Shown: positions 33,682 to 34,223 of the stretch, piece after piece
How the letters are laid out: each line of letters opens with the position of its first letter
How positions within the stretch are numbered: the stretch's first letter is position 1
Source: an uncultured Gammaproteobacteria bacterium
Lineage (GTDB): Bacteria; Pseudomonadota; Gammaproteobacteria; Xanthomonadales; Xanthomonadaceae
NCBI GenBank assembly: GCA_965368785.1
Contig: CBDUOG010000004.1
Span: 3,550 to 67,549 of the forward strand
Direction of reading: 5' to 3'
DNA length: 64,000 bases
The notes under the pieces: model-generated
Databases searched by the model: none
Told to the model about the DNA's origin: nothing
Seen by the model: only the letters and a program-made list of their open reading frames with translations
Made by a program: the position numbers and the translations under genes

Positions 33682-33798
33682 CGGATTAAATCGGCCCGAG
33701 CTAAGTGGAGGCCAATGGCTCCGACTGATATCAAACCTGCGTGCTGAGCGGGCCGCATTTGGCGGTCCAGGCTGTGCTTCGCCCAGTCTGTCGAACCC
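33682..33798 (-). repeat. Degenerate RtT-like element, copy 2
   Basis: Shares gcgggccgc..tggcggtccag..ctgtcgaaccc with the copy at 33962-34053. Confidence 0.6.
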
Positions 33799-33961
33799 AA
33801 TTAGGTTGCGAAGCAAGCGGGACTTCGACAATGCGCTAGGCCGGCTTCGAACAGGTCTGATCCCAAAAGATGCGTGCAAAATATGGCTCAACTCGAAGCG
33901 AGGCTTCGAACCCCTCCCTCTCAAAGCAAAAAAGCGCCACAAGGGCGCCAAACTCTTCGAA

Positions 33962-34082
33962 GGTCGGGATTGATTCGGTGCGTTCCGCACCTCATCCGCT
34001 GCGCGGGCCGCCTCTGGCGGTCCAGATCGAGCGATGCTCGATCTGTCGAACCCTACATATTTATTACCGAGGGTTCGAACCC
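33962..34082 (-). ncRNA. RtT-like structured element downstream of tRNA-Ser(CGA), copy 1
   Basis: Minus strand GGTTCGAC-hairpin-GGAC-hairpin-CCCG..GATGAG-hairpin-GAATCAATCCC; same architecture as the E. coli tyrT repeat as I recall it. Confidence 0.65.
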
Positions 34083-34092
34083 AACCGACGCC

Positions 34093-34131
34093 CAAAGTAA
34101 AACAGCGCCCGATGGGCGCTGTTTTACTTTG
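34093..34131. terminator. Perfect 18-bp hairpin terminator after tRNA-Ser(CGA)
   Basis: caaagtaaaacagcgccc-gat-gggcgctgttttactttg. Confidence 0.88.
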
Positions 34132-34133
34132 AA

Positions 34134-34223
34134 TGGCGGAGAGGGAGGGATTCGAACCCTCGGTGGGCGCAAACCCACGCCTGATTTCGAATCAGGTACA
34201 TTCGACCACTCTGCCACCTCTCC
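34134..34223 (-). tRNA. tRNA-Ser(CGA)
   Basis: cctga-ttCGAaa-tcagg, long variable arm, CCA; TATAAT upstream at 34236-34241. Confidence 0.97.

Follow-up and report, generated by a model that had tools for sequence, protein, structure and literature searches.

A probable decaying tandem array of RtT-type repeats behind a tRNA-Ser(CGA) gene in a member of the Xanthomonadaceae

What fills the non-coding stretch of about 730 bp that follows the tRNA-Ser(CGA) gene in the genome of an uncultured member of the Xanthomonadaceae (Gammaproteobacteria)? A first-pass annotation of the 64,000-nt piece of DNA analysed here (the window), made from the letters alone, had placed two units resembling the RtT repeats of E. 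coli behind this tRNA, each preceded by an inverted copy of the tRNA's own T-arm. Three explanations were offered: a read-through RNA folding back onto the tRNA, selfish tRNA-mimicking repeats, or eroded att sites. To our knowledge, RtT has been without an assigned function or origin since its first description. The reading preferred here, and held with good confidence, is that the stretch is a two-unit tandem RtT-type array in which a core was inserted into a duplicated tRNA tail, and that the array is now a decaying relic. Its features, in the order of transcription from the tRNA, are the following.

34134-34223, minus strand: tRNA-Ser(CGA), the host gene of the array (ARAGORN; Rfam tRNA, 59.9 bits)
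34093-34131, minus strand: terminator 1, an 18-bp perfect stem with a 3-nt loop, beginning 3 nt past the CCA (repeat search)
34066-34087, minus strand: anti-T segment 1, an inverted copy of the T-arm (repeat search)
34054-34065, minus strand: A/T-rich spacer GTAATAAATATGTA (sequence)
33961-34055, minus strand: unit 1, an RtT-type core (covariance model R2, 56.2 bits; fold; loop frequencies)
34045-34053, minus strand: start of unit 1, GGGTTCGAC
34023-34045, minus strand: hairpin hp1 of unit 1, with GGA between hp1 and hp2
34008-34020, minus strand: hairpin hp2 of unit 1
33996-34006, minus strand: hairpin hp3 of unit 1
33977-33991, minus strand: hairpin hp4 of unit 1
33966-33971, minus strand: end of unit 1, AATCCC
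33950-33965, minus strand: eroded direct copy of the tRNA 3' tail and trailer, GACCTTCGAAGAGTTT against TCCCTCTCCGCCATTCAAAG (pairwise alignment A6)
33924-33949, minus strand: terminator 2, GGCGCC CTTGT GGCGC followed by T6 (terminator scan; alignment A6)
33899-33922, minus strand: anti-T/acceptor segment 2, an inverted copy of the tRNA 3' end, 22/24 (repeat search, shuffles)
33801-33898, minus strand: decayed spacer with more TTCGAA-type motifs (sequence; repeat family D2)
33678-33800, minus strand: unit 2, a degenerate RtT-type core (R2, 19.3 bits; direct repeat D1)

The units lie directly 3' of the tRNA gene, on its strand and in tandem, with a period of 255 nt. The 18-bp perfect stem of terminator 1 was found where the first-pass annotation had drawn a hairpin, and it is retained in the minimum-energy fold of the read-through RNA. 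Regarding the T-arm copy that follows, which had been counted as 13/13, the inverted copy is present (34066-34082 against 34148-34164, 17 nt, 94%), but its core is only a perfect palindrome of 12 nt (GGGTTCGAACCC, 34071-34082), and the orientation is set solely by the 5-nt flank ACCGA. In canonical units of the family (described below) the position of this segment is that of the 5' strand of the closing helix. A like segment stands at this position in four other loci (L053, L055, L063 and L091), which also have a spacer comparable to the A/T-rich one seen here; such a spacer is typical of the subtype with a faithful inverted T-arm.

All four stems of unit 1 are perfect and every loop has 3 nt; the fold of the unit on the tRNA strand has a z-score of -3.6. 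It is followed only by AATCCC and the eroded tail GACCTTCGAAG, which aligns with the tRNA tail and trailer if a deletion of about 9 nt is allowed. The second hairpin with T-tract drawn in the first pass agrees with a rho-independent terminator predicted at 33933-33949 (minus strand) and followed by a T-run; terminator 2 is a diverged copy of terminator 1. The second inverted copy (33899-33922 against 34139-34162, 24 nt, 92%) matches as counted before, at 22 of 24 positions. When the 687-nt region downstream of tRNA-Ser(CGA) was shuffled 300 times with its dinucleotides preserved, the reverse-complemented tRNA 3' end found a best 24-mer match of 14.4 positions on average and of 17 at most, so that none of the 300 reached the observed 22. 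The motif TTCGA occurs 14 times in the same region against 2.5 times expected (about fivefold enrichment). Both inverted copies (94% and 92%) are thus real, but the claimed adjacency to the unit does not apply to the second, which lies about 100 nt upstream of unit 2, across a spacer (33801-33898) without counterpart in canonical units.

Unit 2, already described as degenerate in the first pass, keeps GGGTTCGAC, hp1 (with compensatory changes) and hp2; its 3' half is gone and its fold is no better than chance (z = -0.5). It is linked to unit 1 by the direct repeat D1 (33743-33798 against 33998-34053, 56 nt, 77% identity, spacing 255). Since the tail of unit 1, terminator 2 and anti-T segment 2 can be aligned with the tRNA tail, terminator 1 and anti-T segment 1 (alignment A6), the stretch is read as a tandem array of two periods, each of which would comprise an eroded copy of the tRNA tail with trailer and terminator, an anti-T segment and a four-hairpin core of about 90 nt.

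A protein-coding reading of the stretch was rejected. A 160-aa ORF (33613-34095) spans the units, and a 67-aa ORF (33202-33405, minus strand) directly upstream of a gene for a 138-aa protein has an odd composition and no tblastn match in the corresponding loci of 11 relatives; the latter is probably not a gene. Neither a tmRNA nor a tRNA pseudogene was found by ARAGORN.

Entry to the family was gained through an exact pattern common to units 1 and 2, which a scan of genome contigs found in one Lysobacterales MAG. There, two tandem units sharing this core come after tRNA-Ser(TGA), and one of them ends in the T-stem and acceptor strand of this very tRNA. An exact-pattern scan of metagenome contigs for the subtype of the present array gave no match. 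Thirty units from other genomes of the same order, none of them from the 64-kb window, were aligned (alignment A4). In this alignment 92.7% of the cells are paired, 17 pairs have changed on both sides, and 92 double-change cells stand against 3 G-U cells; these pairing values were reached by none of 500 shuffles and collapsed when the partners were slid by 1-3 columns. The structure of the core thus appears to be under selection, and the tandem G·A mismatches of hp4 speak for the tRNA-sense strand. The covariance model built from this alignment (R2) matched unit 1 over its full length (model positions 1-108, 56.2 bits, E = 4.8e-14) and unit 2 with 19.3 bits (E = 0.0015). As R2 was built without sequence from the window and matches both units, their membership is independent of the window's own sequence.

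The check named in the first-pass annotation was a cmscan with the RtT and C4 models of Rfam, where a lack of similarity was to speak against the claim; neither model matched. For RtT (RF00391, gathering threshold 45 bits) there was no match in 33300-34500 even at E ≤ 10, and none on the canonical units of the order. No Rfam family, searched at gathering threshold and at E ≤ 10, covers the units in the window or in 18 related loci. A match to sX4 was merely the tRNA plus its terminator, and a 24-bit RtT match in the locus L029, placed upstream of the tRNA, was noise. When the region was compared using BLAST with its own genome, 40 relatives, phages and plasmids, the tRNA alone was matched. The explanation of these results appears to be that the RF00391 model is too narrow and misses most of the family.

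The bridge to the known repeats is provided by the 4.6-Mb chromosome of E. coli K-12, in which R2 found six places, namely the three tyrV-distal rtT repeats and the distal spacers of rrnA, rrnB and rrnD. The scores on the three rtT repeats are modest (22-27 bits, genome-wide E between 5e-4 and 0.02), and the copy in the tyrT-tyrV spacer scored 12 bits. Conversely, RF00391 scored 133-138 bits on the four E. coli tyrT-tyrV repeats and gave sub-threshold matches (31-36 bits) on R2-positive units of other families of the class (L047-L049). Because R2 matches the rtT repeats and RF00391 in turn matches R2-positive units below its threshold, the units of the array, the canonical units and RtT all belong to one family, narrowly sampled by the Rfam model. 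The likeness to RtT seen in the first pass is accordingly supported by homology and not by mere analogy.

In the E. coli tyrV trailer the order is GGGGAAGGATGAGAAGC (the inverted tRNA-Tyr end), AAGGTTCGAC, the hairpins, TAATCC and TTCCCCCACCACCA, and rttR as annotated ends at the CCA of the copied tRNA-Tyr tail. The present array resembles RtT/rttR (178-bp repeats of the E. coli tyrT-tyrV operon, RF00391) in being tandem, directly behind a tRNA gene and on the same strand, and in the layout, which runs from the trailer through the inverted tRNA 3' end, GGTTCGAC and the hairpins to AATCC plus the tRNA 3' end; both are matched by one covariance model, R2. It differs from RtT/rttR in its host tRNA (Ser, not Tyr), in a sequence too diverged for RF00391, in a tail copy so eroded that there is no CCA-ended closing helix, in its period (255 nt, not 178 nt) and in having no Tpr-like ORF. 

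Regarding the distal spacers of rrnA, rrnB and rrnD, R2 scored 47 bits, above its scores on the rtT repeats, and these cores are unannotated in Rfam and RefSeq. As in the array, a terminator stands on either side of the core, and behind the core the 3' end of the upstream stable RNA is repeated (in the array as an eroded copy); the host gene is, however, a 5S rRNA gene, and the GGA loops of hp1 and hp4 are kept, whereas they are lost in unit 1. In rrnB the core (L057, 330-422) is situated between T1 and T2 and precedes a repeat of the 5S rRNA 3' end (AACTGCCAGGCAT). The rrnB T1-T2 spacer is widely used in cloning vectors.

Of 401 genomes of the order, 115 (from 47 of 100 genera) were found by a first model, R1, to carry the core. 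R2 detected the family in 179 of the 400 genomes sampled from the class (148 of 321 genera), many genomes yielding at least nine matches in this class-wide search, which scored up to nine candidates per genome. Among the best 30 loci of the order, 25 lie 70-90 nt behind a tRNA-Ser gene (any isoacceptor) and on its strand; regarding the other five, one has a tRNA-Glu and four have only the last 13-17 nt of a tRNA-Ser ahead of the unit. Many of 52 further loci are situated 57-87 nt behind tRNA-Gln, -Ser, -Pro, -Glu, -Arg, -Asp or -Ala. The canonical unit begins with the terminator, the reverse complement of the tRNA 3' end, (x)GGTTCGAC, hp1, GGAC and hp2, and continues with CCCC-[hp3]-GGGG, hp4 and AATCC joined to the T-stem and acceptor strand of the tRNA in question. 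In several loci the tail runs through the CCA and on to a second terminator; complete tail copies through the CCA are found in L023, L026, L029, L032 and L048. The unit constantly includes an inverted tRNA 3' end, as E. coli and the more than 60 loci examined show. The tRNA-derived flanks match the adjoining tRNA, whichever it is, and decay between loci; they appear to record the origin of each copy rather than its function.

Copies of a tRNA 3' end downstream of an intact tRNA gene are also what genomic islands leave behind, and the array could represent attL and attR scars of tyrosine-integrase islands that repeatedly integrated and excised at the 3' end of tRNA-Ser. The 3' ends of tRNA genes are classical integration targets, and relatives differ in how far the 138-aa gene lies from the tRNA. 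Islands do use such tRNAs: in L016, L026 and L035 the last 13-17 nt of a tRNA-Ser stand ahead of the unit and unrelated, foreign DNA stands before the fragment, which looks like the far end (attR) of an island in the tRNA-Ser gene that has displaced the unit from the intact tRNA. Unlike att sites, however, the array contains inverted as well as direct copies, and the duplication extends through the trailer and the terminator, being a 54-nt exact repeat in L048. The same covarying core is moreover found behind eight unrelated tRNA species and behind 5S rRNA, and collections of phages and plasmids yielded no match. An ORF listing of the neighbourhood showed no obvious integrase-sized ORF near the array. 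The eroded att sites of the first pass are hence a very improbable explanation.

The core itself, about 70-100 nt in length, also occurs apart from duplicated tails. In some of the 52 further loci it lies inside a complete tRNA copy beside an intact one. Comparison of disrupted with intact copies in L022, L046, L047 and L096 placed the junctions exactly between A58 and A59 (TTCGA^ATCC) in genes for tRNA-Ser(CGA), tRNA-Ser(GGA) and tRNA-Gln; one junction is in the D-loop (GTTG^ATAG). The core was found after 5S rRNA 3' ends as well. Three loci of two genomes have a 75-nt core within a conserved ORF at GGTGGA^ATCC, where it keeps the reading frame and brings in no stop codon (L051, 1501-1594; L058, 401-494; L077, 689-779), and the corresponding empty site is seen in a Ralstonia homologue (annotated as a LacI family regulator), which is contiguous there (...WLRQIESGQ...). 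Two further copies of the core are nested upstream in L051. No consistent target-site duplication was found at the junctions, save for an ambiguous 1-nt A. The core thus shares with MITEs discrete boundaries, a recurrent target and the existence of filled and empty sites. On account of the exact junctions in tRNA copies and in the ORF, it behaves as a discrete insertion module that enters T-loop-like targets in one orientation, and the selfish repeats are the best fit of the three explanations offered in the first pass.

Similar elements are REPIN/REP and the IS200/IS605-derived PATEs, which are likewise short, protein-less and equipped with conserved hairpins, and which share with the core a single orientation, a short specific target without evident target duplication, multiple copies and a patchy distribution. 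The core differs from them in its target, the T-loop of tRNA, in a hairpin geometry unlike that of IS608 ends, and in that most of its copies are accompanied by duplicated tails of the host gene. The 'BRE' repeat of Bordetella is a possible candidate for a relative (PMC3110155). No account of the core as an insertion element was found in searches of the literature. That it is an unrecognised protein-less insertion module entering GGTTCGA^ATCC and surviving mainly in dispensable duplicates of stable-RNA 3' ends is a proposal to which we give slightly less than an even chance.

Applied to the array, the core would occupy the T-loop site of a duplicated tRNA 3' end (GGTTCGA / core / ATCC), and it may have been inserted into that dispensable duplicate. 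How the duplicate arose is a matter of conjecture; strand switching at the terminator and T-arm hairpins could have tripled the tRNA tail in direct-inverted-direct order. If E. coli RtT is taken as the guide, transcripts that start at the tRNA promoter and pass terminator 1 would run across unit 1 and end at terminator 2, and any processing would follow the same model.

The remaining explanation of the first pass assigns a function in cis to the inverted copies: the anti-T segments would pair with the T-arm and the 3' strand of the acceptor of tRNA-Ser(CGA) and thereby tune or delay its folding and 3' maturation. The predicted fold of a 299-nt read-through RNA speaks on both sides, as the centroid structure pairs the T-arm and 3' end of the tRNA with anti-T segment 1 across the terminator, whereas the minimum-energy structure retains the cloverleaf; the fold-back is thus thermodynamically possible. 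In many canonical loci a single long palindrome is made up of the tRNA tail, the terminator and the anti-T segment. The array is missing, however, from 12 of 12 congeners and from the orthologous loci in the family; anti-T segments are absent where the core lies in complete tRNA copies or ORFs, and the flanks decay freely between loci. Antisense control of the tRNA is therefore regarded as improbable.

Loop frequencies were determined for 78 class-wide units (alignment A5). The most invariant positions are the 5' GAC, the hp1 loop CNGGA (G, G and A at 99% each) and the hp4 loop ANGGA (100%, 96% and 100%), the two GGA loops corresponding to alignment columns 25-29 and 120-125. In unit 1 both are lost, the loops now reading AUC and GAA; the E. 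coli rtT repeats are without GGA loops, and the rrnB copy retains them. A GGA in a hairpin loop is the site type bound by CsrA/RsmA. A core RNA with two near-invariant GGA loops might thus bind CsrA/RsmA and tie the read-through of stable-RNA operons to the Csr system, a conjecture that we hold to be doubtful. The csrA gene was present in all 20 core-rich genomes checked, and csrA is near-universal in the class. Units close to csrA in several genomes had suggested a link, which was dismissed because the synteny of csrA and tRNA-Ser(GCT) explains it.

In the window, csrA (49112-49270, minus strand) is located directly upstream of tRNA-Ser(GCT) (48909-49000, minus strand), the same order as that of csrA and serV in E. 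coli. Behind this tRNA, other genomes of the order have RtT-type units, and the window has none. As leads only, the family resembles 3'ETS-leuZ of E. coli, a small-RNA sponge derived from a tRNA trailer and thus a functional RNA released from the trailer of a tRNA precursor, and the decoys CsrB/RsmZ, whose GGA motifs lie in hairpin loops as they do in the family consensus, whereas unit 1 is without them.

Could unit 1 with terminator 2 nevertheless be an independent small-RNA gene, encoding a functional variant of RtT RNA? Its four perfect stems are followed by a good intrinsic terminator, and stable RNAs of the RtT family are known from E. coli, Actinobacillus and Thioalkalivibrio (PMC3318445, PMC4986893, PMC8092127). 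In Actinobacillus they are expressed beside other tRNA genes (PMC4986893), and in Thioalkalivibrio they are annotated and cold-induced (PMC8092127). On the other hand, a scan found no promoter-like site upstream of unit 1, neither the genome nor its congeners contain another copy, unit 1 has lost the two loop motifs that are best conserved in the family, and the eroded 3' tail is unable to form a closing helix with a CCA end. By analogy with the expressed RtT RNAs such a gene is conceivable, and we consider it rather improbable.

Most likely the array is a relic of an RtT-type insertion, because it is absent from congeners, unit 2 has decayed, the CCA-ended tail is eroded and the GGA loops are lost. 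The four perfect stems of unit 1 could, against this, mean ongoing selection. Perfect palindromes with 3-nt loops can also result from template-switch correction. Apart from one marginal match the family was absent from 12 congeneric genomes, BLAST found no second copy of the array region in the genome itself, and the orthologous loci in the family are without an array. In relatives the 138-aa gene (here at 32783-33199) is situated 100-130 nt from the tRNA. By this comparison the array is an insert in the present lineage. Its role would at most be an insulating one, as a second terminator ahead of the co-oriented downstream operon.

Within the genus the space that follows tRNA-Ser(CGA) is variable. 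In several congeners (L009, 1029-2620, in the genome G002; L005, L008 and L011) about 1.2 kb separate the tRNA from the 138-aa gene, and the start of an ORF in this spacer is acyltransferase-like by eye. The orientation of tRNA-Ser(CGA) relative to the 138-aa gene and a PP2C phosphatase gene also flips within the family and order (L003, L004, L006, L007, L010 and L012), the tRNA being opposite in the genomes G013, G019 and G026 to that in the window and in G005, G015 and G024. As these neighbours are conserved, the flip is attributed to a small local inversion of the tRNA gene alone.

The array is a diverged, eroding and previously unlisted member of a known but unexplained kind of repeat, RtT. 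For the window itself the significance is modest, in that an odd 730-bp non-coding stretch is explained as the decaying array of a known and enigmatic repeat. The comparison made on its account yields leads that can be tested at the bench: the narrow Rfam model, the exact junctions, the two GGA loops and the copy between T1 and T2 of rrnB in K-12. To judge from the R2 matches, the RtT-type family reaches far beyond what its database model shows. If the core is indeed an insertion module, this would explain why RtT-type units stand behind tRNA and 5S rRNA genes in almost half of the genomes sampled from the class, and why one copy lies in the rrnB T1-T2 spacer.
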